Shown here: positions 1 through 24,737 of the stretch, in pieces
How the letters are laid out: every line of letters begins with the position of its first letter
Position numbering within the stretch: position 1 is the first letter of the stretch
Origin: an uncultured Anaeromyxobacteraceae bacterium
GTDB taxonomy: Bacteria > Myxococcota_A > UBA9042 > DTJE01
Length of the DNA stretch: 24,737 nt
Assembly (NCBI GenBank): GCA_964531595.1
Contig: CAZHDQ010000001.1
Coordinates: forward strand, 1 to 24,737
Direction: 5' to 3'
Made by a program: the position numbers and the translations under genes
The notes under the pieces: model-generated
What the model saw: only the letters and a program-made list of their open reading frames with translations
Database searches by the model: none
What the model was told of the DNA's origin: nothing

Positions 1-1271
1 AGGTCCTGCTCGACCTCCTCGCCCGGCAGCACCTGGACGCGACTGATCGCCAGCCCGCGAGGTTTGAACACCATCGAATACGGATCCTCCAGGGCGTCCA
101 GCACGTAACTAGCGGTCCCACCCAACGCGAACAGCAGGTACTGTCCCGCTGGGATATCGCGCATCTGGAACGTCGCGGTACACGTCGCGTTCGGCCTGTC
201 CGACAGCCCGCACAGGGCCATATTGGTCGGGATCGGAAGTGTCGGGTTTTCGGGGTCCGGTGCCTCCAGTACGCTGCCCATGCTCATCGACGACAGCGGC
301 ACGTCCCGAATCGCCAACTGGACGATCGCCACCGGCACCGGGGCCGCCGGGTTCGTGAACTGGTCCGTGATGAAGCCCGACGGCCAGTGATCCAGCCCAC
401 CCTCGCCTAGGAAGCCCTTGACCTCGCCACGGATCGAACCTACCCGGCCGGCGTCCCGTGGCAGCACCGGGTCCAGCGGTACCATCAAAATCGCCAGATT
501 CGCCGCGTCCACCCCCAGGTACGACGTGAACCGGAACCCGTTTGCGCCCACCGTAACGTCGATCGGCCCCGCCAGCCCAGGCTCGACTAGGTCCACGAAG
601 CCCTCGGGTCCCGTGAACCGCACCCAGGACTGCGCGCCCTTCAGCACAACGACCTGGGCACCTTCGAACGGCTGGGGCGACCCCGCAAACGGCCGGGCCA
701 GCGCGTACACCCGAAGCGTACCGTTCAGCGGCCCCGCGCCGACGTGCGGCCGCGTGTTTACCCCCGGTTCAATTGGATCCTCCAGCGACAGCGCAATCGA
801 ATCGATCGCCTCCTGGAACAGGTCGTCCGGGTCGTCGTAGCGCGCCGTCACACTGGCCCGAACGCGCTGGTCAGAACACGCCCGCACGCGGTACGAACCG
901 TCCACCCTGGATTCGACCGGGGCAATCGGCCCAAGCGGCCACTCGAACTTTACCTCGCACCCCGGCATCGGCAGGCCCAACCCGTCGCGCAGGACGCCCA
1001 CGACGTTGCTGCACAACTGCCCGCCCTGAATCTCGTAGACTGGCGAAGCCGTCAGCAGAATCCGCGGCCCGTCGCCGTTGGGCTCGGGATCGGCCCCGTC
1101 GGGGATACCGTCGTTGTCGGTGTCGACCTTGTCCGGGTCCGTCCCGAATCGGGCCTCCTGCTTATCGGTCAGGCCGTCGCCGTCCCGGTCGGGCCCCAGG
1201 TCCCGGCCGCAGCCGAAGGCGACCATCCCTATCGCGACCAGCAAGGCCCCGCGCAGGAACCAAACACGCAT
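1..1271 (-). CDS. Lipoprotein with N-terminal Dx[DN]xDG calcium-binding motifs followed by beta-rich (Ig-like/carboxypeptidase-regulatory-like) segments; partial, runs off the left edge
   Basis: Not in the ORF track because its stop lies outside the window. Translated by hand from ATG at 1271 (AGAGGTG RBS just upstream, 17 nt after the FadL stop): MRVWFLRGALLVAIGMVAFG-C (lipobox), then DRDGDGLTDKQEARFGTDPDKVDTDNDGIPDGADP. The frame stays open to position 1 with GC3-rich codons. Confidence 0.85.
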   Translation of the reverse strand, partial: MRVWFLRGALLVAIGMVAFGCGRDLGPDRDGDGLTDKQEARFGTDPDKVDTDNDGIPDGADPEPNGDGPRILLTASPVYEIQGGQLCSNVVGVLRDGLGLPMPGCEVKFEWPLGPIAPVESRVDGSYRVRACSDQRVRASVTARYDDPDDLFQEAIDSIALSLEDPIEPGVNTRPHVGAGPLNGTLRVYALARPFAGSPQPFEGAQVVVLKGAQSWVRFTGPEGFVDLVEPGLAGPIDVTVGANGFRFTSYLGVDAANLAILMVPLDPVLPRDAGRVGSIRGEVKGFLGEGGLDHWPSGFITDQFTNPAAPVPVAIVQLAIRDVPLSSMSMGSVLEAPDPENPTLPIPTNMALCGLSDRPNATCTATFQMRDIPAGQYLLFALGGTASYVLDALEDPYSMVFKPRGLAISRVQVLPGEEVEQD

Positions 1272-1287
1272 CGTGAGCACCTCTTGC

Positions 1288-2589
1288 CTAGAACCGAGCC
1301 CGAAATGTCAGACCCGCGTTCAGTACGCCGCCTTCGCCAGCCACATTGGGATACCCCGGGTTGCCTGGCTCGAACACGTACTTCGCGTCCCTGTTGCTGA
1401 CCATCGCCGTGTAGGCCACATGCACGTCGACCCCGATGGGTGGACCGCCGACGCCTACGGCATCGAACCCCAGGCCGAACGACCCGGTAAACCGATCACC
1501 GTCCAGCAAGTTAGTTATTCCAGTCTGGGCCGGCACCGGCGACTGAACCCAGCCGAACCCAGCCCGGATCGCCAGCGCTCGTAGCGGCCGGTATTCCCCG
1601 CCAAAGCGCACGGCAAACGTGTTCCTGAAGTCCGGATCCGGCGGACGGGTCTCCTTGACGATCCGCCCATCCGAGCCGGAACTGTACAGGATCACTCGCG
1701 GCGACGACTGTTGGAAGTCGCTGTACAGCGAGTAAGTCAAGTCGCCCGCGACCGTGAACTGGCCGGTCCGGTACGCCGCGCCCAGCGCAAACTGGTGAGG
1801 CGTCGAAAAGTCGTACGCCAGCACCTTCAGCCGCACAGCCGCGATCTTTTCAGACAGCACCGCCGACACCGGGATCTCGATGTAGGTCCGATTCGCGCCA
1901 CGCCACGTAAAACCAATCGTCAGACCCGGAATCGGCGCCACCATCGCACCGATCGTCGGGGCCAAGCTCATGTTGACGTCGATCAACGCCTGGTTCGCAC
2001 TGCTATCCTTCGTGAAATCCACGTCCACGCGGCCGATGACGTCTGGCAGCATCGATACGCCGACCCCCAGCATCGCCCACTTCCAGCGCAGGGCCACCGC
2101 AGCGTTCAACACCAGGCGGCGATTGCGGTCCTCCATGAACGGGAAGTACGCCTCCTGGACCGGCCGCTCGCGCACCGCATAGATGGACCCGACCGGAAAC
2201 GCGACGTGCAGCCCCGCGAACAGCAGCCTTGGATATTTTTTCCCCAGGGGAATCGGGCTGGCCAGGCCGATGTCCATCAACGCACGCGTCGTATCGGCGC
2301 GGGCCGAGGTCGCCGGAACGATCCGTCCGGTGCCGTCCTCGGCATGGGTCGTTGCTTTAAGGAAGGGCCGGTACACAAGCGTCCCGATACCCAGATCGAA
2401 CCCGTCCAGTTGCCCCAGGCCCGCCGGATTGTACCAGCAGGCGTCGTACGAACCCGCCAGTCCGGTCGCTCCGCCACCCATGGCGATGTTCGCCGAGGTC
2501 GCGCCAAACGTGTCCAGTGGGTTTGCGCTAGCCGGAACCGCCAGCCCCAGCAGCGCTAACGAAACAGTCAATGCCCAGGCGAAGCGCAC
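1288..2589 (-). CDS. OmpP1/FadL-family outer-membrane long-chain fatty acid/hydrophobic compound transporter
   Basis: GTG start with a GGAGGG RBS and a signal peptide ending ASA. FadL-type N-terminus 'GATSANIAMGGGATGLAGSYDACWYNPAGLGQL', amphipathic beta strands, C-terminal Phe (..GLTFRARF). Confidence 0.88.
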   Translation of the reverse strand: MRFAWALTVSLALLGLAVPASANPLDTFGATSANIAMGGGATGLAGSYDACWYNPAGLGQLDGFDLGIGTLVYRPFLKATTHAEDGTGRIVPATSARADTTRALMDIGLASPIPLGKKYPRLLFAGLHVAFPVGSIYAVRERPVQEAYFPFMEDRNRRLVLNAAVALRWKWAMLGVGVSMLPDVIGRVDVDFTKDSSANQALIDVNMSLAPTIGAMVAPIPGLTIGFTWRGANRTYIEIPVSAVLSEKIAAVRLKVLAYDFSTPHQFALGAAYRTGQFTVAGDLTYSLYSDFQQSSPRVILYSSGSDGRIVKETRPPDPDFRNTFAVRFGGEYRPLRALAIRAGFGWVQSPVPAQTGITNLLDGDRFTGSFGLGFDAVGVGGPPIGVDVHVAYTAMVSNRDAKYVFEPGNPGYPNVAGEGGVLNAGLTFRARF

Positions 2590-2736
2590 TCAGTCCCCTC
2601 CGGAAGACCGGCCGGGATAATACCACAGGGAAAAAGATCATCGGAACGGCGGTCACGGGCGCGCCCCGTTAGACCGCACAGGGTCGCCGCACACACCGAA
2701 TTAATCGCTGACTGCAACTAGATTCCGCGATTTGGC

Positions 2737-2742
2737 TATAAT
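2737..2742 (+). promoter_or_regulatory. Candidate sigma70 -10 element (TATAAT) for the large lipoprotein gene
   Basis: Perfect TATAAT 29 nt upstream of ATG 2771 in a locally AT-richer divergent intergenic region; no good -35. Confidence 0.4.
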
Positions 2743-2770
2743 GCGACTCCCTGTTCTTCGAGGCCTGGAT

Positions 2771-5512
2771 ATGGTTCGCTTCACGCGATTGGCAACTTGG
2801 GTCCTGGCTGTCGTACCACTGGCGGCGGTCGCCTGCCAAGGCGGGCTGGTTTCGGGGTTCCCGCCAAAGGTCGACACGGTACCCGACCGGGCGGAAATCC
2901 GTGCCGGCGAGGTCGTACACATCGCGTGTACCGTATCCGACGACCAGGGCAAATCGGTCGACACATCCACCACAGTAGCCATCGACCCGTCGGAGGGTCT
3001 GGCGCTGGCCGATCACGACGCGACACCCACGAAGGCCGGGACTTACACCGCGACCTGCGCGGCCCCGGAATTCGACGTCGTCGACGATACGCCCGCTGCT
3101 TTCAACGTTGTGCATGCGGACCCTGCCAAGGCGATCGCCACCGTGGACCCGTCATCGGTCCACGCAGGCCAGCCTGCAACCGTGACCTGCATCGTCGAGG
3201 ACGCCTTCGGCAACGTGATCACAGACGCGACGACGACAGTGACCGCAGCCGCCGGCGTAGACGTCGATGACCACCGCGTGTCGACGACCCAGACAGGTAC
3301 CTACGAGGTCGCGTGCGCGGTGCCCGGGTTTCAGGTGGAGGCATTTACCGACGTGCTGACAGTCGGCGCCGCCGACCCGATTCGCGTCGAGTTGTACATC
3401 AATCCAGACAAGCCTCGCTATGGACTGAACACCGATATTACCCTGTCCCACAAGGTGTTCGACGCATACGACAACGTCGTCGAAGGCCTGGGCTTCCAGT
3501 ACGTGATCCCCGAAAAGGGCATCAAGAAGATCGCCGACAACAAGGTGCGACTGATCGCCGAGGGCCACTACTTGGTCAAGGTGGTGCTGGACGCCCCGTG
3601 GGAGGCCATCGAGGACAGCCGAACGCTTATCTGCGACACGACGGGCCCGGGTTTCGAGGACCTGTATCCACCGCGTGGTCACACGACCGACAGCGAGCCC
3701 GTGCTGGTCGTGTCGGGCCGTGCCGTCGACCCGGCCGGGTCCAAAGTCGTCGAGGTTTTAGTAAACGGCAAGGAAGCGACCCTGGACGCCAACGGGTACT
3801 TCGAACTGCCCGTGGACAGCGCACACGGCGTCAATGGCCTGAAGATCAGCGCCAAGGACGAATTCGGTTTTTCGACGTTCGTAACCCGCGGCTACTACTA
3901 CTCGGAGGGCTGGCTGTACTCAGACCCCGAGGCCACCATCGGCGACGCGACGTTCGCCGAGGGCGCGATGCTGTTTTTGGGCCAACGGGCGCTGGACGAC
4001 GGTGACCACGATCCTGCACACCTGAACGATTTCGCGACAATCTTGGAAGTGCTGCTGGGCATCGACCTGGTCGACCTGATCGGTGGCATCCCGCCGTTCG
4101 CTACGACGATCCCGAACCTCATCAACTTGACCCTGCTGGGCGTCGGGCTCCAGGGCGACCTGGAGGTCCGGGTCACGGTCACCGACGTGTCCCTGGGGAC
4201 GCCGCATGTATCGCTGGACACACGGGACGGCGGGATGGAGGCCGGCATCGCGTTCGAAAACGTGTTGCTGGGACTCGACTTGGCGTTCTACGTCCATGCC
4301 CGCGCCACCGCGTTCGGCAATTCCTACCCGCTGCTGGACCCGGGCGTCGCCACGTCGTCAACGATGCGCGTCGGGCGCCTGGGCGTCAGCGTCAGTTTCG
4401 ACATCGACATGCCCCTGGGCGGTGCAGTTTCGGTTGAAGGCCGCGACTTCCAACTGGAAATCACGGACGTGGAAATTGACCCACTCGCCGGCCTGATGAT
4501 CGACCTGGGCATGGTGCCTGGCCTGGGTATCGACCTGGGCACCTACGACCTGTCGCAACTGGTCGGCGGGATCAACGATGTAATTCGCGACTACGTGCTG
4601 GGACCGCTGGTCAGTTTCATCACACAGCCACTGATCGACCTGCTTGAGCCGCTGGTGGTCCCGCTGATCGGCGATCTGATCGAGCAGGTGCTTGGGATGC
4701 TGGACATCCAGCAAACGGTCCAGATCCCGTCGATCCTGGGGATCCCGCCGGTTGACCTGGACCTGGCGCTGTCGCTTTCGTCGGTGACCTTTACCGAGGA
4801 CGGTGGCCGCCTGGGTCTGAATGTCGGCGTCCTGACCGAACACGCCGTTGACCACGAGCCGCTGGGCTCCATCCTTAGGGCCGGTTGCAACAGCGTCGAC
4901 CCGGATCCCGCGATGTTCGACTTCGGCGTCGAGCCCGGTATCCAGGCCGGCATCCGTTTGGACCTGGTCAACGAGCTGTTGTTCATGCTGTGGCGAACCG
5001 GAATGATCAACCAGACCCTCGACTTGGGCGGACTGATGGGCGGCGGCGGCAGTTCGTCGGTCGACAACCTGGTCATCACACCGAACGCCTATCTGCCACC
5101 AATCCTCGACGACTGCGGCGATATGCAGGAACTCCAGATCGGCGATCTGTACCTGGACATCCAGGGAGACGCGTTCGGTTTCAACATCGCGATGCGGGCG
5201 TGGCTCCAGTTGAAGATGGAGGCCAATATCTTCGCGACTGGCAACGAAATCGGGATACACATCGGCAAGGTCCGGTTCATGGAAACCGAAATCTTCGACG
5301 ACGGCGGCTTCGACCTGATCACGGACATCGTTGTGGGCCTTCTGCCCCAATTGATCAAGAGCCTGGAAAACCAGTCGTTCTCGTTCCCGATCCCCTCGAT
5401 TCCGCTGGACGGGCTGCTGCCTGGGCTGCCCGCCGGTGCCGAACTGCGCATCGGCGACTTGAAGGCCGGCACCGAACACGGCGTGATCGTGGTCGGTGGC
5501 AACCTGCAATAA
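2771..5512 (+). CDS. Large acidic lipoprotein (~913 aa): N-terminal Ig-like repeats plus a C-terminal tandem BPI/LBP/CETP-like (TULIP-like) region
   Basis: The ORF track starts at 2732, but ATG 2771 follows GAGG and gives a lipoprotein signal (MVRFTRLATWVLAVVPLAAVA-C). Three repeated 'CTV.D..G..(V/I)...TTV.......' Ig-like units, an Ig/cadherin-like 'VVSGRAVDPAGSKVVEVLVNG' unit, then ~515 aa patterned like BPI/PLTP. Confidence 0.85.
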   Translation: MVRFTRLATWVLAVVPLAAVACQGGLVSGFPPKVDTVPDRAEIRAGEVVHIACTVSDDQGKSVDTSTTVAIDPSEGLALADHDATPTKAGTYTATCAAPEFDVVDDTPAAFNVVHADPAKAIATVDPSSVHAGQPATVTCIVEDAFGNVITDATTTVTAAAGVDVDDHRVSTTQTGTYEVACAVPGFQVEAFTDVLTVGAADPIRVELYINPDKPRYGLNTDITLSHKVFDAYDNVVEGLGFQYVIPEKGIKKIADNKVRLIAEGHYLVKVVLDAPWEAIEDSRTLICDTTGPGFEDLYPPRGHTTDSEPVLVVSGRAVDPAGSKVVEVLVNGKEATLDANGYFELPVDSAHGVNGLKISAKDEFGFSTFVTRGYYYSEGWLYSDPEATIGDATFAEGAMLFLGQRALDDGDHDPAHLNDFATILEVLLGIDLVDLIGGIPPFATTIPNLINLTLLGVGLQGDLEVRVTVTDVSLGTPHVSLDTRDGGMEAGIAFENVLLGLDLAFYVHARATAFGNSYPLLDPGVATSSTMRVGRLGVSVSFDIDMPLGGAVSVEGRDFQLEITDVEIDPLAGLMIDLGMVPGLGIDLGTYDLSQLVGGINDVIRDYVLGPLVSFITQPLIDLLEPLVVPLIGDLIEQVLGMLDIQQTVQIPSILGIPPVDLDLALSLSSVTFTEDGGRLGLNVGVLTEHAVDHEPLGSILRAGCNSVDPDPAMFDFGVEPGIQAGIRLDLVNELLFMLWRTGMINQTLDLGGLMGGGGSSSVDNLVITPNAYLPPILDDCGDMQELQIGDLYLDIQGDAFGFNIAMRAWLQLKMEANIFATGNEIGIHIGKVRFMETEIFDDGGFDLITDIVVGLLPQLIKSLENQSFSFPIPSIPLDGLLPGLPAGAELRIGDLKAGTEHGVIVVGGNLQ

Positions 5513-5525
5513 AATTCAACAGTTT

Positions 5526-5540
5526 CCCCCGTACCGGGGG
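5526..5540. terminator. Short GC hairpin between convergent genes
   Basis: CCCCCG-TAC-CGGGGG, 14 nt after the 5512 stop. No U-tract on either strand, so terminator function is uncertain. Confidence 0.3.
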
Positions 5541-5574
5541 TCCATCCAAAAGCCGGCCCGGGCCGCCCTCCTCG

Positions 5575-6102
5575 TTAACGGCGCTGCCCGCGGGCCTCAA
5601 ACCCCTGACGCAGCATCACGATGGCACGCTGCTCGGCCCGCACGATCGTGGCGGGGCTGACCCGCATCAGGGCGGCTGCCTCGCGGACCGTCAAATCCTC
5701 GAAGAACCGCAAGCGCACCACCTCGCGTTCGACCCGCGGCAGGAGCGCCCACCCGTCTCGCAAGAACGTCCGAAATCGTCGCAGGGCCAGCACCGATTCG
5801 GGCGAACGGGAGTCGGCGGCCCAGTGGATTTGGACCCCACTCTCGGCCGTGTGGCAGGCTGGTGCCTCGCGGTTGCGCCGGACCATGCCACGCAGGTGAT
5901 CCAGCATCGCGCCAGACGCACGTTTCGTGGAAAACGTCCGCAGACTGCACCCGTGGCCCCCCTCGTAACGGGTCGCGGCCTCCAGCAGACCGACGACGCC
6001 TTCCTGGAACATGTCTTCCCGGTCGACCTCGGACCGGACCGTGGGGGCAATGGACCGCGAGATGCGTTTAACGACCGGCACCAGGCTGGAAATCGATGTC
6101 AT
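5575..6102 (-). CDS. Short sigma70-family factor (175 aa) with FliA/WhiG-like region 2 and region 4, lacking region 3
   Basis: Region 2 'DREDMFQEGVVGLLEAATRYE...SLRTFSTKRASGAMLDHLR'; region 4 HTH 'LPRVEREVVRLRFFEDLTVREAAALMRVSPATIVRAEQRAIVMLR'. ATG 6102 is preceded by GGAG; the alternative TTG start is 6117. Confidence 0.88.
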   Translation of the reverse strand: MTSISSLVPVVKRISRSIAPTVRSEVDREDMFQEGVVGLLEAATRYEGGHGCSLRTFSTKRASGAMLDHLRGMVRRNREAPACHTAESGVQIHWAADSRSPESVLALRRFRTFLRDGWALLPRVEREVVRLRFFEDLTVREAAALMRVSPATIVRAEQRAIVMLRQGFEARGQRR

Positions 6103-6188
6103 GGTCGAGCTCCACAATGGGTCATGCCGAATCCTTTGCGAAGGACGTGCCGTGGCTGCGCAGAAGGGCGATTAAAATCGTAAGCCGT

Positions 6189-6202
6189 TGTTTACAAACA
6201 AT
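6189..6202. promoter_or_regulatory. AT-rich palindrome upstream of the sigma gene (candidate operator)
   Basis: TTGTTT-AC-AAACAA inside the AT-rich patch ~6170-6210, 87 nt upstream of ATG 6102. Confidence 0.35.
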
Positions 6203-6300
6203 AAATAGCCGCGAAGCACCCAATCTAAGCGTCGCACGCTCGACCAGCGTCCCTCGCACGCAGCAACCTGCCGGGGCCGGTCCACCCCAGCCTGGAGCCA

Positions 6301-6662: not shown

Positions 6663-7715
6663 ATGCGCACCCGGACACGACCGAACGCAATCCAGCCGGC
6701 AGATGCGGTGCCGTTGCTGCCCCGCAGAAGACACGGACCCAGGCCACTTAACAGGATTGAACGGGCCGAACGCCTGCCCGATGACCTGCTGCCTGACCTG
6801 AGCGCACTACTGCGCCGGTATCCACATAGGAATCACCAGTTACGCACTCTGGGCGTGGACAAGAATGCGATGACCGCCTACCTGCTGGGCGGCATGGACC
6901 GGGCCGACACCCGCGTGCTGTTCGAGGTCCGCGAGGGGCACCTGGAAGGGTTGATCCAGGTCGTTCCCGACACCCTGCTGAGCCAGCGCCTTGGCCGCCG
7001 GATGTGGTCTATCCGCCACGTGCTGTCCGCAGACGACGGCCGGTTCGGGGTCGTGCGCCGGTTGGTGAGCGCCTTGGTAGAGGATCTGGAGGGCCGGGCC
7101 GACATGGTTACTGCTCGGGTCGCCTCTGGCGATCTGGTCGCCTTAAACGCACTGGAACGCAACGGATTTAGGGTAGTCACCGGTGAAATCGCCGGCGTGG
7201 TCCGCCCGACCCGAGTGGTCTCGGCGCATCCCGCGGGGCTGGTCATCGAGGTGATGCGCCCAGACCATGTCGAGGACGTCGCAGCGATTGCCGGCCGCAG
7301 CCACGTCCACAACCGGTTCGCCTACGACCCGCGATTCGACCGTGACGAGGTGCGCCTGCTGTACGAAGATCTGATCCGCAGGTACGCCGAGGACCCGGAC
7401 ACGACATCATTGGTGGCTCGAACCCGTGACGGAACCATTCTGGGATTCATCAGCACCCGCCTGAACCGGGCCATATCGGACGCGACCAACAGAACGCTTG
7501 CCAGCCTGGACTTCATCGGTGTGCAGCCTGATGTCCGCACCCGGGGCATCGGCGACGCCCTGAACCAGCACGCGCTGGCACGGATGTATTCCCTGGGAGT
7601 CCACGCAATCACGGTGCGTACGTTGATGAACAACTTTGAAGCCCTGGGGGTCCTGCAAAAACTCGGCATGCGGATCACCAGTTCCAACGTCGTCCTACAT
7701 CGGTGGTGGGGATGA
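6663..7715 (+). CDS. GNAT-family N-acetyltransferase with a WecD/RffC-like C-terminal domain, probably tandem GNAT
   Basis: 'HNRFAYDPRFDRDEVRLLYEDLIRRY' resembles the WecD SRF motif and helix. Acetyl-CoA-binding motif 'FIGVQPDVRTRGIGDALNQHAL', then 'TVRTLMNNFEALGVLQKLGMR'. Start uncertain (6621, 6663 or later). Confidence 0.8.
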   Translation: MRTRTRPNAIQPADAVPLLPRRRHGPRPLNRIERAERLPDDLLPDLSALLRRYPHRNHQLRTLGVDKNAMTAYLLGGMDRADTRVLFEVREGHLEGLIQVVPDTLLSQRLGRRMWSIRHVLSADDGRFGVVRRLVSALVEDLEGRADMVTARVASGDLVALNALERNGFRVVTGEIAGVVRPTRVVSAHPAGLVIEVMRPDHVEDVAAIAGRSHVHNRFAYDPRFDRDEVRLLYEDLIRRYAEDPDTTSLVARTRDGTILGFISTRLNRAISDATNRTLASLDFIGVQPDVRTRGIGDALNQHALARMYSLGVHAITVRTLMNNFEALGVLQKLGMRITSSNVVLHRWWG

Positions 7716-8401
7716 AACGCACAAATGCGATCTGGGTGTTCCTTTGCTTCCTTTTGCTGGCGCCGGCGTCCGCGTCTGCGTTGGAGGTCATCGTCGGCAT
7801 GCCCTACGGAGACCACCCCATAGGGCACACGGCGGTCCGCGTCCGGACCTTCGATTCCGACGAAGCGGTCATTTTCGACTTCGGCCGCTACAGCAAGGTA
7901 TGGGGATACCTGCGTTTTCAAGGCGAAGGCGTGATGCGAGTTTGGCGCGGTCCCGAGGCCATACGGAAATACTTCGCGAAACAACAGTCGTTCCGGGATT
8001 CGATAGGTTACGAAATCAAGGTCACCCCAAAGGAAGAACGTCGCATCCTGGCTTACTACGAGGGCCTGCTTAAAAGCGCGGTGTGGGTCAAAGAGTACCC
8101 GCTGCACAAACGCTATCGCCTGGCATCCGACTATCACGGCGTCTACAACCAATGTACGTCGATGTCGCTGGAAGGACTCAAGAAGGTGCTGCCTCGGAAG
8201 CGCTGGGAGGCCATCCTTGCCCCACGCCACAACCGCGGTCAAGGATTCAACGAGGCCACGCGAACCTACTTTTACAGCGTTCAGAAGGAGAAGGGGCTAA
8301 ACGAGGTTGTCGTGCCGCTGGATGTCGTCGACGCCCTGGAAGACGCCCACCGCCGACTGCCGAAGGTCGTCGTGGCCGTCCGACGTTACGACCGCCACTA
8401 A
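7712..8401 (+). CDS. Secreted protein, Lnb/DUF4105-like (permuted papain-like His/Cys) domain
   Basis: ATGA overlap with the GNAT stop. Sec signal (..LLAPASASA-LE). Motifs GHTAVRV (7823), FDFG and YNQCTS (Cys at 8153) match the DUF4105 pattern GH.x.LR / F(N/D)YG / NCT. Confidence 0.65.
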   Translation: MKRTNAIWVFLCFLLLAPASASALEVIVGMPYGDHPIGHTAVRVRTFDSDEAVIFDFGRYSKVWGYLRFQGEGVMRVWRGPEAIRKYFAKQQSFRDSIGYEIKVTPKEERRILAYYEGLLKSAVWVKEYPLHKRYRLASDYHGVYNQCTSMSLEGLKKVLPRKRWEAILAPRHNRGQGFNEATRTYFYSVQKEKGLNEVVVPLDVVDALEDAHRRLPKVVVAVRRYDRH

Positions 8402-8576: not shown

Positions 8577-11420
8577 ATGGAACGCCTGGTCCTGATCGAA
8601 TTCATCGCTGCCGACCGCCCGATCCGCGGGATCCAATTCCCCTATATCCATGGATTCGTGAAGGGACGGGGGCTTTTTTCCCACTGGCTTCGGTTCGGAC
8701 TGGCCCACGCTTCCCACCAATTCGTCAGAGGCGAGCACGGGATCGGCCTGGAACCGGGGGACATGGCGGCGCTGCTCGACTACCTCGACGCCTTCAAGCC
8801 GACTCGGGCGGTCTTCAACATCGCCCCGTCCTCCGATTTCCTTCGACAAATCGGCGATCGCTGTCCGGGCCTGCGGACGGCACTCGCCGGGACCCGCGGA
8901 ATGGGGGCCGCCGATCCTGGGCAAGGCCTAGAAACACTGTTCGGCACGACGCTGGAATTGACGCGCTTCCTGGGACTGCCCGAGGTCGCCGGGAAACCAA
9001 CATCGTTCATGCACGAAGTGACCCCGGATTTCGGCTTTTTGGCCATGAACCCGCTGGCGCGCAAGATCGACCCGATCCCCTACGTGGTGCTGGACTCGAC
9101 GTGCAAGTACGCACGCGGTCTGCGACACAACCCATTATTTTTGGACATCGACCTTTCCGGATGCGATCGCACAACCGGCTGCACCTTTTGCGACATCTCG
9201 GACGACTACCGGGCCGGTCTGACATTCACCCTGGAAAACGCCCGGATGCAGTTCGAGGCGCTGAAGCACACCCTGCCGCCCTTCGACCGGCCGGTCCAGG
9301 TCCGGCTGATCGGCGACCGATTGTTGGACCACGCGCCAAACCTGGTCCGGATTGCCCTGGACCTGGACATGCCCCCGTGCGAATGGCAGTTCGACACGCG
9401 TGCGGACGATTTGGTGCGCAGCCGTGTACGGTTCGAGGAGGCCCTCGTGTTGGCCACCGGAACCGGCCACCGGGTCCGGGTCACGCTGCTGGGCATCGAA
9501 AACTTCTCCCGCGACGAACTGTTGCGGATGAACAAGGGGTTGACCCCACAAGACAACCTGGACGCCATCCGGTGCCTCGTCGAATTGGGACGCGATCACC
9601 CGGCAGTCTTCGGCTCGATGGACGGTGGCTGCAGCACCATCCTCTTTTCCCCGTGGACGACGCTCGAAGACGTAGCTTTCAACCTTCGCATCATCAAAGA
9701 AGCCGGGATTTTTACGCTGACTGGAAAACTGCTCGGCTCACGGATGCGCCTGATCCCCGGCACCCCGATCGCGGCGCTGGCGCAACACGACGGATTAACG
9801 ACGGCGCAGTTCGACGACCCGCTGTTCGAATCCGCCATGCGAAACCTGTACGGCCAGGAAATTCCCTGGAAATTTCAGGATGCACGCGCGGACACTCTGT
9901 GCCGGATATTCGTCAGGCTGGACCTTGGGGTTAACGCGGATACGACGGACCCGTTGACACGCCAGGTCTCCCGCCTGCTGCAGGGCACCGGTGAGGACGT
10001 ATCGGCCATCCTGGACATCGCGCTGTCGCTGGTGGACGCGCTGACGAAACGTTGTCCACCGACCGAGATCTCGCTGAGAGCCGTCCCCTCGGCGTCGGAA
10101 CTTCTAAAACATTTCCAGCCGGTCTGTGGCGCGCATTCAGGTGGGGACGAACACCCGGACGATGTCGCCGCGGAACGCCCACCGGTTGCGTGGGCAGCCT
10201 CGCGGCCTGGTTGGTGGCACTCCCACGTCCGTCTGCTGTGTGCCACCGTGAATGCTGGCCTGAAGCCGGTCGCAAAACTGGAAGGCGTGCCCCGCGAACT
10301 GATCGGCCGTTTCGCCACCGAATTCGACATGCCGAACCTGATGGTCGTCGATTCCACCATGTACCCGGAGGGGCACCCGATCCTGTATTTTGGCAAGGAT
10401 CCTGAATCGGTGCAGCGACTTGCCAGGTTGACTCAAGTCCGGACGGGCGAGGCTTGGTCCGCCACGGCCCGCCCCAGGGACACGACCGGTGAGATCGGCG
10501 CGCTGCTCGGTTATCCGGCATGCTGCGTCAAGGCATTCCGGACCGGCAGCCAACGAGACGTCAACCGGTTCATTGAGATGCGACTAAACGACTCAGAACG
10601 GATCCCGCCGGAGCGCAATCCCTGGCCCTTCTCGGGGATATCTGCCGTACCTTGCAGCCCCGGATGCAGCGTCTGGCTCGAAGGCAACCAACGCATGCTG
10701 AATGCGGCCCACGCGGCGTTTACCGACGAGACATTTTCACTCCTAGAAGCATCCATGTCCCACCCCTGGCTACTGCTGCCGGAATTCGACTCCAGCATCC
10801 AAATGATCCCCGACGACCCGGTTGGACCCCACTTTCGATTCACACTGCCCGGCCCGGATCCGCACCCACTGGCTATGATCGGCGTCCTGGATGCCGACGA
10901 AATCCGGATGGACGACGAGCGAACGTGGCTGTTTCACCGTGGTGTGAAGGTAGCGGACCTTTCGATGCGGGCATTCGTCTGGTCCCACGAAAAAGTATTT
11001 CAGAGGCGCCTTTGGCAGTCGGTCCTGGACCTTCGCCAGATGACGAGGCCCCTTCGCGATAGGGCCGCTACAGCCGGCGCGTCGTCCCGCTCGGTCGCGG
11101 AAAAACTGCACGGATTCGTTTCGCAGATCCTGGCACGTTTCGAGTTCCGGGACACAAATGGCGGCGGGTTTCGAATCGGCAGCATCCGGGCTGTCGCGGA
11201 TGACAGCGTACACGTGGCGCTGGTGTCCGACCATGACACGTTTACGGTGGTGCTAAGGCCCCGAAAGGCCACACCAAAGGCATTTTTGAACCTGGGTCCT
11301 CTGGCACTCCTGTACCCGGGAGACCCCGCCGACAGCACCCAGGAACGCCAGCAGGCTATCCACGAACTGGCCGACCGCCTGGCCCACGGGATCGCCGAAC
11401 GAAGAAGGGATTACCGGTGA
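8577..11420 (+). CDS. Atypical radical SAM protein (947 aa) with a DUF483-like Cys-rich C-terminal fusion
   Basis: C-X19-C-X5-C-X2-C at 9102-9191 (..GCDRTTGCTFC). Radical SAM barrel elements 'LLGIENFSRDELLRMNKG', 'ILFSPWTT' and 'RMRLIPGTP'. C-terminal 'IGALLGYPACCVKAF' and 'PCSPGC'. Confidence 0.8.
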   Translation: MERLVLIEFIAADRPIRGIQFPYIHGFVKGRGLFSHWLRFGLAHASHQFVRGEHGIGLEPGDMAALLDYLDAFKPTRAVFNIAPSSDFLRQIGDRCPGLRTALAGTRGMGAADPGQGLETLFGTTLELTRFLGLPEVAGKPTSFMHEVTPDFGFLAMNPLARKIDPIPYVVLDSTCKYARGLRHNPLFLDIDLSGCDRTTGCTFCDISDDYRAGLTFTLENARMQFEALKHTLPPFDRPVQVRLIGDRLLDHAPNLVRIALDLDMPPCEWQFDTRADDLVRSRVRFEEALVLATGTGHRVRVTLLGIENFSRDELLRMNKGLTPQDNLDAIRCLVELGRDHPAVFGSMDGGCSTILFSPWTTLEDVAFNLRIIKEAGIFTLTGKLLGSRMRLIPGTPIAALAQHDGLTTAQFDDPLFESAMRNLYGQEIPWKFQDARADTLCRIFVRLDLGVNADTTDPLTRQVSRLLQGTGEDVSAILDIALSLVDALTKRCPPTEISLRAVPSASELLKHFQPVCGAHSGGDEHPDDVAAERPPVAWAASRPGWWHSHVRLLCATVNAGLKPVAKLEGVPRELIGRFATEFDMPNLMVVDSTMYPEGHPILYFGKDPESVQRLARLTQVRTGEAWSATARPRDTTGEIGALLGYPACCVKAFRTGSQRDVNRFIEMRLNDSERIPPERNPWPFSGISAVPCSPGCSVWLEGNQRMLNAAHAAFTDETFSLLEASMSHPWLLLPEFDSSIQMIPDDPVGPHFRFTLPGPDPHPLAMIGVLDADEIRMDDERTWLFHRGVKVADLSMRAFVWSHEKVFQRRLWQSVLDLRQMTRPLRDRAATAGASSRSVAEKLHGFVSQILARFEFRDTNGGGFRIGSIRAVADDSVHVALVSDHDTFTVVLRPRKATPKAFLNLGPLALLYPGDPADSTQERQQAIHELADRLAHGIAERRRDYR

Positions 11421-11510
11421 ACCGACCGCCTTACGCACCCCACGTGCCGGCCCTCATCGGCCCGTTTGGCCTGCCGGTAGGTGTGTAGGAACTGCCTGCG
11501 CCTCTAACGC

Positions 11511-11540
11511 TGACTGACAAGATGACTAGATTGTCAGTCA
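11511..11540. promoter_or_regulatory. Perfect 10-bp inverted repeat, candidate repressor operator (TetR-like)
   Basis: TGACTGACAA-gatgactaga-TTGTCAGTCA with a nested TGAC-N6-GTCA (11523-11536), ending 21 nt before ATG 11562 and upstream of the GGGAG RBS. Confidence 0.7.
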
Positions 11541-11561
11541 ACCTAGCAGGGAGACCGGACC

Positions 11562-12593
11562 ATGAGCCAATCAAACACCGTCAACCGCCGGATCGTGCTC
11601 GCTCAGCGCCCTCGGGGCGAACCTGACGAAAATACGCTACGGCTGGAAAACGTCGCCATCCCGAAACCCGCCCAGGGCCAGATGCTGCTGCGCAATGAAT
11701 ATCTGTCGCTGGACCCGTACATGCGGGGCCGGATGAGTGACGCGCCCTCCTACGCCGCGCCTGTCGAAATTGGCGACGTGATGGTGGGAGGAACCGTTTC
11801 GCAGGTTGTGACGTCAAACGTGGACGGATTTTCCGAAGGGGACTGGGTCGGCGCGTACGGCGGCTGGCAGGATTATGTGCTGTCCGATGGCAATGGCGTC
11901 ATCAACATGGGCAAGAACCCGGAAAATCCGTCGTGGACTCTGGGCGTCCTTGGAATGCCGGGCCTGACGGCTTGGGCGGGATTGACACAAATCGGGCAGC
12001 CGAAAGCTGGTGAAACACTTGTGGTTGCAGGGGCCAGCGGGCCGGTGGGCGCGACAGTCGGCCAGATCGGCAAAATTCTGGGATGTCGCGTTGTCGGTAT
12101 CGCCGGCGGGGCAAAGAAGTGCCGCCATGTGGTTGAAACCTTGGGGTTCGACGCTTGTATCGACCACAAGGCTGAGGGGTTTGCCGATGCGTTGAAAGCG
12201 GCGGTGCCCGATGGCATCGACGTCTATTTCGAAAACGTCGGCGGTGCCGTCTTCGACGCGGTTCTGCCGCTGCTGAATCCAGCGTCGCGCATCCCGCTGT
12301 GCGGCTTGATCTCACAATACAATGCAACGTCCTTGCCTAAAGGTCCGGACCGGATGAACTTCCTGATGGGACAAATACTGCGCCGCAGGATCACGATGCG
12401 GGGGTTCATCGTCTTCAACGATTTCGGGCATCTCTATCCGGAATTTGCCAGCAAAATGATCGCCTGGGTCAAACAGGGCAAGATCAAGTACCGCGAGGAA
12501 ATGATCGCAGGGCTGGAACAGGCGCCAACCGCATTTATCGGGCTCCTGCGCGGCGAAGCTTTTGGCAAGCGTGTCATCCAACTGAGCGACTGA
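11562..12593 (+). CDS. NADP-dependent oxidoreductase, MDR superfamily (CurA/YncB, prostaglandin-reductase-like alkenal/one reductase)
   Basis: 'NRRIVLAQRPRG', 'YLSLDPYMRGRMSDAPSY', 'LGVLGMPGLTAW', NADP motif 'AGASGPVG', 'DVYFENVGG', 'LCGLISQYN'. Confidence 0.95.
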   Translation: MSQSNTVNRRIVLAQRPRGEPDENTLRLENVAIPKPAQGQMLLRNEYLSLDPYMRGRMSDAPSYAAPVEIGDVMVGGTVSQVVTSNVDGFSEGDWVGAYGGWQDYVLSDGNGVINMGKNPENPSWTLGVLGMPGLTAWAGLTQIGQPKAGETLVVAGASGPVGATVGQIGKILGCRVVGIAGGAKKCRHVVETLGFDACIDHKAEGFADALKAAVPDGIDVYFENVGGAVFDAVLPLLNPASRIPLCGLISQYNATSLPKGPDRMNFLMGQILRRRITMRGFIVFNDFGHLYPEFASKMIAWVKQGKIKYREEMIAGLEQAPTAFIGLLRGEAFGKRVIQLSD

Positions 12594-12922
12594 TACAGAC
12601 AAGAACCCGATCCCTGCGTGTAGCGTGTGAGGATCTCGGATACATTCGCATGTCGACGACGGTAGTCTGGACATATACTCCACGGGTGAAGATTTTTTGC
12701 CCCGCACGACGGGGTTCACCGGCGCGATAATGACGGCCGATCTGCGGCGCAACTCTTCACCTTGGACTAGGATAAGGTTCATCGAATCCAGTGGTTGCAT
12801 TGAACCTTCGGTTAGCGAGTGGCTTCCGTCGATGCTGGTGCAATGAACGGGGCACCCGCCATTGGGCAGGGGTTTGAATTGTTCCTGCGAACGGCTGGGC
12901 GCTATTCAAAGAAAGGTGAGTC

Positions 12923-14293
12923 GTGAAACAAGGCCATCTGATTTTGGCAATGACCCTGGTTGTGATGACACTCCCGGGCTGTAGTAAGCAATCGGCAGGG
13001 CCGAATGTCGACGAGTTAGACAATCCGGCGACCGAGGATAGCGCCCAAGTGCTCGTCGCCGTGCATTCGTACACGGGACGCACAATTGTCGCCGGGCTGG
13101 CCATCGCCGCCATGCTCGATGCACGTTTCGTGCGCTACGGGAGTCCTCCTCAGGGGCTCCCGGCACTGCCTGGCGCCTCTGCCAAAAAACATCCCCAGTT
13201 GGCTCCAGCAGATGTCACCAGCGCAGACACGGTCTTCCTCGGCTTCCCGATTTGGTCGGATGGCCCAAGCCCAGACGCGATGCGTATCGCCGCCCTGCCC
13301 GAGTTCGCCGGGAAACGCGTCGTACCCTTTTTCACCTACGTACACTACGTGCAGCCCGAGACGCTCTCGGCCCTCAGCGTGGTGCTCGAGAAGTCGGGCG
13401 CGACAGCGTTGCCGCCGGTGGGGATCCGCATCCCAATGTTCGACACGGAGGAGCAGGTCGTGGCCTCCGTGGAGCAGGCTATCCTTGCCCGACCCGACCT
13501 GTGGGGAGGCGACCAGTCGACACCCGATCGTGTCTGCCACGAGCCGTCGGGAAACGAGGACCGCACATGTCGAGTGCCCGCCGGACACGCCTGGGTCGGC
13601 GATACTCGGATTCAAGACGCCCCTCGTGGCTACATCAGGCCCCGCCTTGTGCATGTGCCTGCGTTCGATATCGATCGCGCCGAAGCGACCGTCGCCGACC
13701 TCCGCCAGTGCACCGAGGCGGGCGCCTGCCCACCACTGAAACTCCAAGGCTTCTGCGTCACGCTGGTGCAGGAAGGGGGCGAAGGCGTCCCGGCGCCCTG
13801 TGTCAGTTACGGGCAGGCCGTAGCGTACTGCCGCTGGCGTGGGATGACGCTCCCGACGCAGGCTCAGTGGGCGCGAGCCGCGCGGGGGGCTACTACCTGG
13901 GCGTATCCGTGGCCCGGGGACTTTCGCCGGGACGGGGGAAATCTGGGCGAGCACCCGCCCTTCGGCTACCCCGACTACAGCATCCCCACGGCGCAGGCCG
14001 ACTGGCCCTTCGACGGCTACCGAGGTCTTGCCCCACCATGCCATTTCGAGCATGGACTTAGCGCCTTCGGGCTCTGTGACATGGCTGGGAACGTGGCGGA
14101 GTGGCTCGACCAGCAAGCGTCCGACTCGTCCTGGGCGCCCCTCACCGGGGGATCATGGTTGAGCGTCGACCCCAGCGACGTGCGGGTTGGATCGTTGGCC
14201 TATCATCCGAAAGATTTTGCCTTCTACCTGACCGGCGTGCGGTGCGCACGGCCGGCGTCGATCTCGACCACCACGCCTGACTCCGACGACTGA
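12923..14293 (+). CDS. Lipoprotein: flavodoxin-like domain fused to a formylglycine-generating-enzyme-like (FGE-sulfatase/SUMF1/EgtB/PvdO) domain
   Basis: GTG after GAAAGGTGA; lipobox TLPG-C. Flavodoxin motifs 'VHSYTGRT' and 'DTVFLGFPIW...GKRVVPFFT'. FGE motifs 'AVAYCRWRGMTLPTQAQWARAARG', 'FGLCDMAGNVAEW', 'GGSW' and 'GVRCAR'. Confidence 0.85.
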   Translation: MKQGHLILAMTLVVMTLPGCSKQSAGPNVDELDNPATEDSAQVLVAVHSYTGRTIVAGLAIAAMLDARFVRYGSPPQGLPALPGASAKKHPQLAPADVTSADTVFLGFPIWSDGPSPDAMRIAALPEFAGKRVVPFFTYVHYVQPETLSALSVVLEKSGATALPPVGIRIPMFDTEEQVVASVEQAILARPDLWGGDQSTPDRVCHEPSGNEDRTCRVPAGHAWVGDTRIQDAPRGYIRPRLVHVPAFDIDRAEATVADLRQCTEAGACPPLKLQGFCVTLVQEGGEGVPAPCVSYGQAVAYCRWRGMTLPTQAQWARAARGATTWAYPWPGDFRRDGGNLGEHPPFGYPDYSIPTAQADWPFDGYRGLAPPCHFEHGLSAFGLCDMAGNVAEWLDQQASDSSWAPLTGGSWLSVDPSDVRVGSLAYHPKDFAFYLTGVRCARPASISTTTPDSDD

Positions 14294-19055: not shown

Positions 19056-19289
19056 GTCGCTCCCTGAGGTCAAAACTATCGCCTGGACCGTCCGCGAGGA
19101 GGGCATCGTCGAGTGCGCCAAGAAGCGGGATGTCGGCCCGGAATTAGTGTCCCAGGATATCACATCGAGATTGATTTCCCTATCCATCCGGCGCCATCCC
19201 GTCCACCCAACGAATGCCTCGATGGGGTCCCCCTTTGACTCACAGGGACATCCTGGCACTACGGCAGCATGCGCTACGGGCTCTCGCAA

Positions 19290-19318
19290 TTGACGGTCCG
19301 GCGGCCCTTCCTTAGCAT
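19290..19318 (+). promoter_or_regulatory. sigma70-type promoter for the PG-binding metallopeptidase operon
   Basis: TTGACG-N17-TAGCAT, with a GGAGGG RBS at 19360-19365 before ATG 19372. Confidence 0.65.
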
Positions 19319-19371
19319 GGAATCGTCGTATCCAGTCGTGAAATCCCCGTCCGGATTCCGGAGGGTCACCG

Positions 19372-22653: not shown

Positions 22654-23499
22654 ATGAACGGCGGGGATTACACGCGGGTGGCTGCAGCGATCCGGTTCCT
22701 GGAGGCGCACGCCGTCCAGCAGCCTGGCCTCGCTGATGTCGCTGCGCACGTGGGGTTAAGCGAATTCCATTTCCACAGGCTGTTCAAACGCTTGGCCGGG
22801 GTGACTCCCAAGGACTTCCTTCGGGTCCTGACCCTGGCGAGGGCGAAGCGACTGCTGGCGGAAAACCATGGCGTGCTGGAAACGTCCATCGACGTCGGGC
22901 TATCGGGCCCGTCGCGACTGCACGACCTGTTCACGGGGCTGGAGGGCATGACGCCCGGGACCTTCCGGCGTGGTGGCCAGGGCCTCATCGTTCGTTGGGG
23001 CATATTCCCGACCCCGCTGGGGGCCGCAGTGTTCGCGGCAACTGACGCGGGGCTGTGCGCAGCGGCGTTCCTGGGAGACAACGAGGATCCGGAAGCAAAC
23101 CTGCGGTCGCGGTGGCCAAAGGCGACCCTGGTGAAGGAACCGGAGGCAGTGCGGATGGACGCAGAGGAGGTCGCGGCGCGGATGCGTGGGGACCCCGGGC
23201 GGCCGCTGTCTTTGGCAATGCAGGGGACCCCGTTCCAGATGCTGGTTTGGCAGGCCCTGGTGGCGATCCCCGAGGGGCGCGTGACGACCTACGGGGCACT
23301 GGCCTCGGGCCTGGGTATGCCGTCGGCTTGCCGTGCCGTGGGTGCGGCGGTCGGGGCGAACCCGATCGCCTACCTGATTCCATGCCACCGGGTGATCCGC
23401 TCGACCGGGGCCGTGGGCGACTACCGGTGGGGCTGCGACCGGAAGATTGCGCTGCTGGCCATGGAAGGGGCACGACACCTCGATTGGCTGACAAAATGA
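22654..23499 (+). CDS. Bifunctional AraC-type HTH / methylated-DNA--protein-cysteine S-methyltransferase (Ada-like, no N-terminal Zn domain)
   Basis: 'LADVAAHVGLSEFHFHRLFKRLAGVTPK' (AraC HTH), 'GTPFQMLVWQALVAIPEG..TTYG', active site 'IPCHRV'. Likely start is ATG 22654. Confidence 0.93.
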   Translation: MNGGDYTRVAAAIRFLEAHAVQQPGLADVAAHVGLSEFHFHRLFKRLAGVTPKDFLRVLTLARAKRLLAENHGVLETSIDVGLSGPSRLHDLFTGLEGMTPGTFRRGGQGLIVRWGIFPTPLGAAVFAATDAGLCAAAFLGDNEDPEANLRSRWPKATLVKEPEAVRMDAEEVAARMRGDPGRPLSLAMQGTPFQMLVWQALVAIPEGRVTTYGALASGLGMPSACRAVGAAVGANPIAYLIPCHRVIRSTGAVGDYRWGCDRKIALLAMEGARHLDWLTK

Positions 23500-23511
23500 T
23501 TGGAGTAGCGA

Positions 23512-24558: not shown

Positions 24559-24565
24559 GTTGCGA

Positions 24566-24737
24566 TCAGGCCGACGGCCAGCCGCCAAGGCCACGGACCA
24601 GTACGTGGGCGCCCAGCGGCACGCCGGCATGGTCCGCGATCACCTCGCACTTCGCCCGGAACAGGAAGCACAAGGGGGCATCTACATCGCTAAGGGTCTC
24701 GTAATTGCCCTGCCCCTTGGCGATGACCAGGTCAGCA
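24566..24737 (-). CDS. 3' end of a DUF89/ARMT1-like damage-control phosphatase (partial)
   Basis: Manual translation ADLVIAKGQGNYETLSDVDAPLCFLFRAKCEVIADHAGVPLG..., stop TGA at 24566-24568. KGQGNYE and AKC are the DUF89 C-terminal motifs. Confidence 0.85.
   Translation of the reverse strand, partial: ADLVIAKGQGNYETLSDVDAPLCFLFRAKCEVIADHAGVPLGAHVLVRGLGGWPSA

Follow-up and report, generated by a model that had tools for sequence, protein, structure and literature searches.

How Gram-negative bacteria acquire lipids in bulk from outside the cell is poorly understood; FadL-type channels explain the passage of free fatty acids but not the extraction of lipids from membranes or particles. The animal solution for moving lipids through water is a tunnel of the BPI/CETP type. 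The only bacterial double-TULIP protein studied is TipA of Bdellovibrio bacteriovorus (Bd2538/Bd2539 being TipA/TipB), a protein that attaches to phospholipids and bilayers and that a beta-sandwich adapter opens (10.1101/2025.09.09.675085); no partner that acts after TipA has captured a lipid is known. The same study also points out that some bacterial double-TULIPs carry fused beta-rich domains (10.1101/2025.09.09.675085), and clustering of the AlphaFold database has revealed bacterial structural homologues of BPI, including a protein of a "Deltaproteobacteria bacterium" (PMC10584675). Thus, the TULIP fold is not new in bacteria. On the channel side, AupA and AupB of the alkane-uptake operon of Marinobacter are a FadL-family protein and a second envelope protein, both of which are needed for uptake (PMC5989066). 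In Bacteroidota, the gene pairs BamG/BamH and Bt1785/Bt1786 each encode a FadL-homologous barrel that binds a large lipoprotein (PMC12578637), and therefore FadL barrels can be lipoprotein docks, not only channels. Here I describe positions 1-5512 of a 24,737-nt stretch of DNA (called the window; contig CAZHDQ010000001.1, assembly GCA_964531595.1) from an uncultured Anaeromyxobacteraceae bacterium. Three genes lie in it: a minus-strand pair encoding a FadL-like barrel and a lipoprotein with thrombospondin type 3 (TSP3) repeats, and a plus-strand gene encoding a lipoprotein of 913 amino acids (aa) with immunoglobulin (Ig)-like domains and a BPI-like double TULIP. The reading that I favour, to which I give about an even chance, is that the region brings together, head to head, two envelope modules that handle hydrophobic molecules, and that they probably cooperate and are separable, rather than being parts of an obligate three-part machine.

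The 913-aa protein has 27 close homologues, none of which is named. In an AlphaFold2 model based on a 27-sequence alignment (mean predicted local distance difference test score (pLDDT) 82.5, predicted template modelling score (pTM) 0.60), four beta-sandwich domains are followed by residues 394-913, where very long twisted strands are accompanied by three long helices. The N-lobe has the long twisted strands and a 42-residue helix (601-642), and helices 730-742 and 848-863 belong to the C-lobe. When the model was compared with the PDB using Foldseek, the top match was BPI (1ewf, E 1e-15, template modelling (TM) score 0.56 normalised to BPI, 560 aligned columns), and BPI 1bp1 (E 7e-15), CETP 2obd (E 2.9e-13) and LBP 4m4d (E 4.6e-13) were also found, all ranking above the Ig-string matches caused by the stalk. 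In this model, residues 394-913 are a BPI/LBP/CETP-like double TULIP, a domain of 520 residues, and the fold call holds; the original prediction had made this call from the raw sequence. The domain shares with eukaryotic BPI, LBP, CETP and PLTP (PF01273 plus PF02886) the two-lobe helix-sheet-helix TULIP architecture of about 450-520 residues. It differs from them in having only about 10% identity, in being strongly acidic and in being lipid-anchored behind Ig domains. The conserved Cys pair of this family (Cys706/Cys782) lies in the C-lobe, whereas the Cys pair of BPI lies in the N-lobe.

A phmmer search with the 520-residue domain against 1.84e9 cluster representatives retrieved at least 324 clusters (50% identity), with E down to 1e-16 among the 51 distant relatives that were scanned further. 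Most of the 324 matches are 850-1200 aa in length with the TULIP domain at the C-terminus, and the family seems to be Myxococcota throughout. Pfam LBP_BPI_CETP (PF01273) is matched by 19 of the 51 distant relatives at E 0.01 or better (best 3.1e-7), JHBP by two and Grp7_allergen by two, all of these being TULIP-clan families, while none of the 51 matches PF02886. A profile of the family compared with PDB sequences gave no match for the C-terminal half, where no PDB chain was found at E 10 or better in the TULIP region. Conservation in the family peaks at LDDGDHDPAHLNDFATILE (residues 408-426, 3992-4048), a motif at the junction of the last sandwich and the N-lobe, where a conserved DDGDHD stands. 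The TULIP domain has a net charge of -52 and an isoelectric point (pI) of 4.05, and the median charge in the family is -50. Its grand average of hydropathy is +0.43, as opposed to -0.07 in the Ig part, and thus fits a large apolar interior. The charge argues against a BPI-style electrostatic capture of lipopolysaccharide (LPS), and a cationic, LPS-binding, BPI-like protein was rejected on this ground. Judging from the fold, the hydropathy and the behaviour of TipA, it is likely that the domain binds a lipid or another hydrophobic ligand.

The N-terminus of the 913-aa protein, MVRFTRLATWVLAVVPLAAVAC-QGG, is a signal peptide followed by the predicted lipid-bearing Cys22 (2834-2836), which is invariant in all 27 homologues within a lipobox of the A/G-C-x-G-G type. 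The residue after this Cys is Q in the window protein, K in its three closest relatives, and E, D, G, T or S elsewhere. The Ig stalk that had been proposed for the N-terminal part corresponds to the four Ig-like domains of the model. Within residues 1-390, Pfam recognised Ig-like domains only weakly (Invasin_D3, MG2 and Glucodextran_B). The first three domains resemble those of invasin/intimin (Big_1) and carry the conserved Cys pairs 53/96 and 140/182; the stalk matches the adhesin FdeC (4e9l, 2.4e-16) when the family profile is compared with PDB sequences, and invasin (1cwv) in Foldseek. Domain 4 (residues about 293-385, 3647-3925) resembles Glucodextran_B/Big_7; most of the family, including 41 of the 51 distant relatives, has it immediately before the TULIP domain. 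Cys-rich Dicty_CTDC repeats take the place of the invasin-like stalk in 13 of the 51 scanned distant members, as in P0186, P0208, P0215 and P0253 (about 1200 aa). The stalk is modular across the family, and the last sandwich and the TULIP domain are constant.

TipA and the window protein are both bacterial BPI-like double-TULIPs whose nearest solved relatives are BPI, CETP and LBP, and both belong to lineages with predatory members. Both also have a beta-sandwich partner; TipB is a separate protein, whereas in the window family the conserved sandwich is fused before the TULIP domain, where it may play a role analogous to that of TipB. TipA is secreted as a soluble homodimer and has an operon-encoded adapter, in contrast to the window protein, which is a lipoprotein on a stalk of four Ig domains. 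Lipid binding has been demonstrated for TipA only, and a FadL neighbour is not mentioned in the TipA study (10.1101/2025.09.09.675085). The window protein has no TipA-type sequence similarity as judged by DUF2785 and by PDB chains at E <=10 in the TULIP region, the presence of TipA in the searched sets being uncertain, and no gene for a small TipB-like beta-sandwich protein is adjacent to the BPI-like gene in the window. Other bacterial TULIP proteins are E. coli YceB, which is also a lipoprotein, and the clostridial P47/OrfX proteins. They differ from the window protein in being single-lobed or otherwise arranged, in having no Ig stalk and in showing no detectable sequence relation.

The barrel encoded upstream on the opposite strand matches Pfam Toluene_X/FadL (PF03349) with 54 bits against a cut-off of 29.7, in agreement with the original prediction, and all 33 closer homologues carry the same domain. 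A profile compared with PDB sequences matched the Pseudomonas aeruginosa FadL homologue 3dwo (3.8e-12) and E. coli FadL (6e-11), and also TbuX, TodX and CymD; the confident alignment of the mature barrel (about 410 residues) to solved FadLs is limited to the C-terminal third. The NPA motif of the hatch (N54-P55-A56, codons 2422-2430) is invariant in 31 homologues and aligns with the NPA of 3dwo. The signal peptide ends in PASA followed by NP, and with the putative cleavage after ASA22, the NPA motif lies at mature positions 32-34, compared with 33-35 in 3dwo. Thus, the barrel resembles FadL, TodX and TbuX in family, hatch motif, mature length and its canonical N-terminus. It differs from them in that its subfamily, which has about 35 clusters, is found only in Myxococcota and is always paired with a lipoprotein of about 720 aa. 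BamG, a non-transport homologue, is marked by an N-terminal extension of 10-12 residues (PMC12578637). The window barrel has no such extension, and its phylum is a different one. Four NCBIfam assignments were rejected by score: AupA, the best NCBIfam match of the barrel (26.5 against a cut-off of 840), PorV (22.5 against 90), the FadL equivalog (21 against 585), and BamG (20.2 against 250), whose type of extension is absent.

The partner lipoprotein runs off the left edge of the window, so that 423 of about 721 codons are seen. Full-length relatives of the window protein have 721-732 aa, and about 50 full-length homologues range from 690 to 740 aa. The protein starts with MRVWFLRGALLVAIGMVAFGC-GRDLGPDRDGDGLTDKQE, comprising a signal peptide with the lipobox AFGC (Cys21) and then TSP3 Ca-binding repeats. 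At least 90% of 45 homologues have this Cys21, followed by G-R. Pfam TSP3_bac scores 32.5 bits against a cut-off of 25, with two repeats at about 1077-1196; the proposal of a Ca-motif lipoprotein beside fadL was therefore borne out. Behind the repeats lie Ig-like and carboxypeptidase-regulatory-like beta-sandwich domains. An AlphaFold2 model of the full-length relative P0063 (88% identical; pLDDT 90.9, pTM 0.86) is compact, all-beta and multi-domain. With this model, Foldseek retrieved only generic strings of Ig/MG domains with low TM scores, and neither an enzyme or lipid fold nor BamH. Pfam and NCBIfam gave nothing beyond the TSP3 repeats, which are weak in NCBIfam, and one Big_1-like domain, and the PDB sequence profile found TSP3 repeats and Ig/MG-like sandwiches only. 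The most conserved part of the protein is residues about 440-721 of P0063, whose counterpart lies beyond the left edge of the window and which match no known fold or family. These C-terminal 280 residues include the invariant D529, P530, G532, T535, R602, Y605, W630, E678, E680, N705, Q713 and S715 and a GGPRSHCLWE motif, and they may be a binding or catalytic site.

The barrel and the TSP3 lipoprotein are likely partners in a complex, since their pairing is obligate and their genes are only 16 nt apart, and since AupA/AupB, BamG/BamH and Bt1785/Bt1786 provide precedents. The AupA/AupB operon also has the gene for a FadL-family outer-membrane protein followed by that for an envelope partner. 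In contrast, AupB is an inner-membrane protein, while the TSP3 lipoprotein has no NCBIfam family beyond weak TSP3-repeat matches.

The features of the locus are listed in Table 1. The close spacing of the minus-strand pair was described correctly at the outset, although the gap between the stop codon of the FadL-like gene (TAG, 1290-1288) and the ATG of the lipoprotein gene (1271-1269) is 16 nt rather than 17 nt. The spacer contains an AAGAGG Shine-Dalgarno sequence, and the two genes are almost certainly co-transcribed. The divergent region, which had been put at about 180 bp, measures 181 bp. Within it, a conserved block at 2711-2760 looks like a promoter. This block has ACTGCAAC and, downstream of it, TATAAT (2737-2742), a perfect -10 hexamer that precedes the ATG of the 913-aa gene by 29 nt. 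From this block through the start codon, the sequence is near-identical in L072, the locus of a 79%-identical relative, while the remaining spacer is poorly conserved. The block was uncovered by this two-sequence alignment and not by a consensus scan of positions 2400-6300 for sigma-70 promoters and terminators, which found neither a full sigma-70 site nor a terminator. The open reading frame (ORF) as listed opens at TTG 2732. The true start of the 913-aa gene is ATG 2771, because the database copy is also 913 aa and TTG 2732 sits inside the promoter-like block.

Table 1. Positions of the genes, domains and spacers of the locus within the window
Feature	Coordinates	Strand	Basis
TSP3 lipoprotein gene, 5' part	1..1271	-	translation; Pfam TSP3_bac
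Spacer, 16 nt, between FadL-like stop and lipoprotein ATG	1272..1287	-	sequence reading
FadL/TodX-family outer-membrane channel gene, 433 aa	1288..2589	-	Pfam PF03349
Divergent intergenic region, 181 bp	2590..2770	.	sequence reading
913-aa lipoprotein gene (Ig stalk and double-TULIP)	2771..5512	+	homologues; AlphaFold2 model
Four Ig-like beta-sandwich domains, residues ~30-390	2858..3940	+	Pfam weak matches, PDB profile, Foldseek
BPI/LBP/CETP-like double-TULIP domain, residues 394-913	3950..5509	+	Foldseek, phmmer
Sigma-70-family factor gene, 180 aa	5575..6117	-	Pfam Sigma70_r2/r4; NCBIfam

Is the juxtaposition of the two modules conserved? Two sets of loci were analysed. The BPI-side set comprises 64 genome loci, apparently all from Myxococcota metagenome-assembled genomes (MAGs), in which six-frame ORFs were searched with iterated hidden Markov models (HMMs). 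The FadL-side set, made from a metagenome scan and three look-ups of distant homologues and de-duplicated at 95% identity, comprises 24 distinct loci. Since loci found via one gene are biased towards holding that gene, the FadL-side counts are given apart. The TSP3 lipoprotein gene adjoins the FadL-like gene in 24 of the 24 distinct loci. In contrast, the BPI-like gene lies beside the FadL pair in 14 of the 23 assessable loci, or in 5 of 11 when only FadL-retrieved loci are counted. The three genes are conserved neighbours in one clade, and the three-gene system that had been put forward is only partly supported. Fourteen distinct loci, with proteins of only 40-80% identity, have the three genes in this order and orientation, and the arrangement is therefore more than chance. 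The adjacency of the modules is kept where the outer flanks differ (L072, L004 and L001).

The BPI-like family falls into about five clades in the 64 loci, with up to three paralogues per MAG, and each clade has its own conserved neighbours. A FadL pair is found upstream only in the clade of the window protein (clade A, at least 40% identity), and four clade-A loci (L008, L022, L007 and L028) have none. A lack of linkage between fadL and homologues of the BPI-like gene beyond close relatives had been named at the outset as evidence against the system, and it is partly borne out: linkage was found within clade A and failed in every paralogue clade (0 of about 30 assessable loci). Conversely, 9 of the 23 FadL-pair loci have no BPI-like gene, including one whose barrel is 67% identical to that of the window. 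Neighbours that might be hidden barrels or TULIPs (388 aa in L006, 267 and 471 aa in L003, 1038 aa in L074 and 1180 aa in L075) were negative with Pfam and a broadened TULIP HMM, as was a 392-aa neighbour in L007, which is a leucine-rich repeat protein. In L008 (1-8054), the closest genome relative with a 77%-identical protein, an FGGY sugar kinase gene lies upstream where fadL would be, and its nucleotide sequence begins to resemble the window at 2831, at the beginning of the gene; the locus has either been rearranged or comes from a chimeric MAG contig.

The sigma factor gene is convergent with the BPI-like gene. Its product has regions 2 and 4 only and scores 74 bits against a cut-off of 42.9 with the NCBIfam sigma70-ECF superfamily. 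About 15 clade-A loci have the gene downstream of their BPI-like gene, among them L008, which has no fadL, and it is absent from all FadL-pair loci without a BPI-like gene. Thus, it travels with the BPI-like gene and not with the FadL pair, and the sigma factor may be a dedicated regulator. In L029, L056 and L062, related sigma genes are found a few kb or less from BPI-like paralogues. In L072, the BPI-like gene is followed directly not by the sigma gene but by genes (10839-13941, plus strand) for an ATP-binding cassette (ABC) ATPase and a MacB/FtsX-type permease, an architecture like that of LolCDE.

On the other side, a His-Xaa-Ser (Hxs) cluster with radical S-adenosylmethionine (SAM) genes flanks the FadL pair in 13 of the 19 assessable distinct loci, including loci without a BPI-like gene, and is linked to the pair about as often as the BPI-like gene is. 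It was found in L004 (1287-4435), L076 (3238-6412), L001, L009-12, L017-20, L079, L082 and L087-90, and is absent in L072-75, L086 and L091. In L076 and L084, the Hxs genes are co-directional with fadL and abut it. NCBIfam scores lie above the cut-off for HxsB (543 against 370 bits), HxsD (57 against 50) and a 71-aa HxsD-like protein (72 against 41), and below it for the HxsC-like radical-SAM gene; no HxsA repeat peptide was seen in the clusters examined. The Hxs stretch is outside the window, whose left edge falls where the cluster would lie. The simplest description is that a [Hxs]-[TSP3 lipoprotein <- FadL] unit and a [BPI-like -> <- sigma] unit were juxtaposed in one lineage and have mostly been kept together since. 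Lipid-related neighbours were also seen, each in a single locus, and they are anecdotal and not conserved: a gene divergent from the FadL pair whose product is an MMPL/RND transporter containing a sterol-sensing domain (L091:2994-5417, minus strand); a patatin phospholipase gene after the TSP3 lipoprotein gene (L073:9566-10615, plus strand); 3-beta-hydroxysteroid dehydrogenase-like and steroid-reductase-like genes between the Hxs cluster and the FadL pair (L001:2045-3816, plus strand); and an alkaline ceramidase gene near a BPI-like paralogue (L007:14506-15765, minus strand).

In the two-module reading, the first module (1-2589, minus strand) is an operon for a FadL-type channel and an all-beta lipoprotein tethered via Ca-binding TSP3 repeats, whose products would form a barrel-lipoprotein complex passing a hydrophobic substrate through the outer membrane. 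In the second module (2771-6117), four Ig-like domains would hold out an acidic, hydrophobic double-TULIP, with the small sigma factor encoded alongside. The TULIP domain would sequester a lipid or another hydrophobic molecule in its tunnel and shuttle this cargo at the cell envelope, on either the surface or the periplasmic side. In the lineage of the window, where a divergent control region is common to both modules, they probably work together to acquire or traffic lipids. Cooperation is the weak step of this reading: the thematic match and the common control region speak for it, while the separability of the modules and the equally frequent Hxs linkage speak against it.

Several further points weigh against the two-module reading. 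The 913-aa protein in the window has no Pfam BPI match of its own, and the variable residue after the lipid-bearing Cys leaves it uncertain even to which membrane the protein is attached. The remainder of the window contains no genes for fatty-acid activation or degradation or for other lipid catabolism. In a quick neighbour-joining tree of the FadL proteins, the adjacency has a single origin, at the base of a crown group, with four or more later losses, one of them in a lineage whose barrel is 67% identical to that of the window. Conservation is also fair in the outer flanks, and the adjacency of the modules could be inherited synteny. All carriers are uncultured MAGs, with activated sludge and lake water columns as source habitats.

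The original prediction went further and proposed a dedicated three-part surface apparatus, in which membranes of prey, host or detritus are the source of a lipid that the TULIP lipoprotein, on its Ig stalk, draws out and passes on to FadL, the Ca-motif lipoprotein being the third part. The fold and family calls on which it was built are confirmed, the genes have a divergent promoter region in common and are themselves conserved in 14 distinct loci, Ig domains of the invasin type and TSP3 repeats characteristically occur in exposed proteins, and TipA of the predator Bdellovibrio has been proposed to take lipids from prey. However, the separability of the modules cuts in both directions, as the TULIP gene is missing from 9 of the 23 FadL-pair loci, even next to a barrel as close as 67% identity, the four clade-A TULIP genes named above have no fadL, and the other TULIP clades have none either. 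I consider a dedicated apparatus of this kind unlikely.

Another account is that the modules are neighbours by descent only, with the FadL and TSP3 pair serving the Hxs cluster, for example by moving its product or substrate, and with the TULIP and sigma genes unrelated to it. HxsD, HxsB and HxsC-like genes flank the pair in 13 of 19 loci, some of them without the TULIP gene, they are co-directional with fadL and abut it in two loci, and the sigma gene tracks the TULIP gene and not the FadL pair. However, the Hxs linkage is also incomplete, and FadL channels carry small hydrophobic molecules, while no Hxs product is known as such. A lipid-tunnel protein beside a lipid channel is also a thematic match that chance would not readily predict, and mere descent seems a doubtful account of the locus.

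Somewhat more doubtful still is a periplasm-facing TULIP lipoprotein that would serve as a ferry between the outer and inner membranes for lipids or for hydrophobic molecules that have been imported, with FadL supplying substrate from outside. Four Ig domains and a TULIP domain of about 13 nm would give a reach that spans the periplasm. There are parallels in E. coli YceB, a TULIP lipoprotein that faces the periplasm, and in the dimers of TipA, whose length matches that needed to span it. The protein has no evident signal for bacterial surface export, and the closest relatives have a Lys after the lipid-bearing Cys; Bhat et al. 2011 are said to have found that such a Lys retains lipoproteins in the inner membrane of Myxococcus xanthus. 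However, this position is not conserved across the family, and the invasin/intimin-type Ig domains, like the Cys-rich Dicty_CTDC repeats of distant members, are typical of extracellular proteins. A weapon of predation or competition, which would bind LPS and permeabilise target membranes as BPI does, with FadL nearby by accident, is very improbable: BPI is the best structural match, TipA destabilises bilayers and Myxococcota are commonly predators, but the N-lobe of BPI is cationic and binds LPS whereas the window domain and its family carry the opposite charge, the protein is lipid-anchored and not free, and several paralogues per genome suggest housekeeping-type diversification.

Elsewhere in the window (14467-19424, minus strand), a gene for a plant/cyanobacterial-type sucrose synthase (797 aa) adjoins one for a sucrose-phosphate synthase/phosphatase fusion (855 aa), a pair that is uncommon in Myxococcota. 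The ORFs at 8577-11420 (plus strand, 947 aa), 7703-8401 (plus strand, 232 aa) and 22900-24630 (minus strand, 576 aa) have no Pfam match at E 0.001 or better, and the 576-aa ORF overlaps other long ORFs in GC-rich DNA.

The original prediction knew of no characterised system with this architecture, and this holds for the three-gene set, although bacterial BPI-like double-TULIPs as such have already been described (10.1101/2025.09.09.675085; PMC10584675). What is undescribed in the literature searched is the Myxococcota family of Ig-stalked acidic lipoproteins, the obligate pair of a FadL-like barrel and a 720-aa lipoprotein, and the juxtaposition of the two. The family is a sizeable, paralogous and lipid-anchored version of the double-TULIP, and its FadL-lipoprotein neighbour in one clade is a candidate link between lipid extraction and import. 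Even if the linkage is incidental, the BPI superfamily is extended into a bacterial phylum with a distinct architecture, namely an Ig stalk, an acidic surface and the DDGDHD junction motif, and the obligate FadL-lipoprotein pair is a new instance of a barrel-lipoprotein partnership outside Bacteroidota. A bolder picture, which I regard as a long way from probable, is a lipid-harvesting relay of a new kind, under the control of its own small sigma factor, in which the anchored, Ig-stalked double-TULIP carrier, possibly in a Ca2+-dependent manner, would pull lipids from foreign membranes or particles and pass them to the FadL-lipoprotein gate. If true, such a relay would be a bacterial counterpart of the hand-off chains of animal LBP and CETP.

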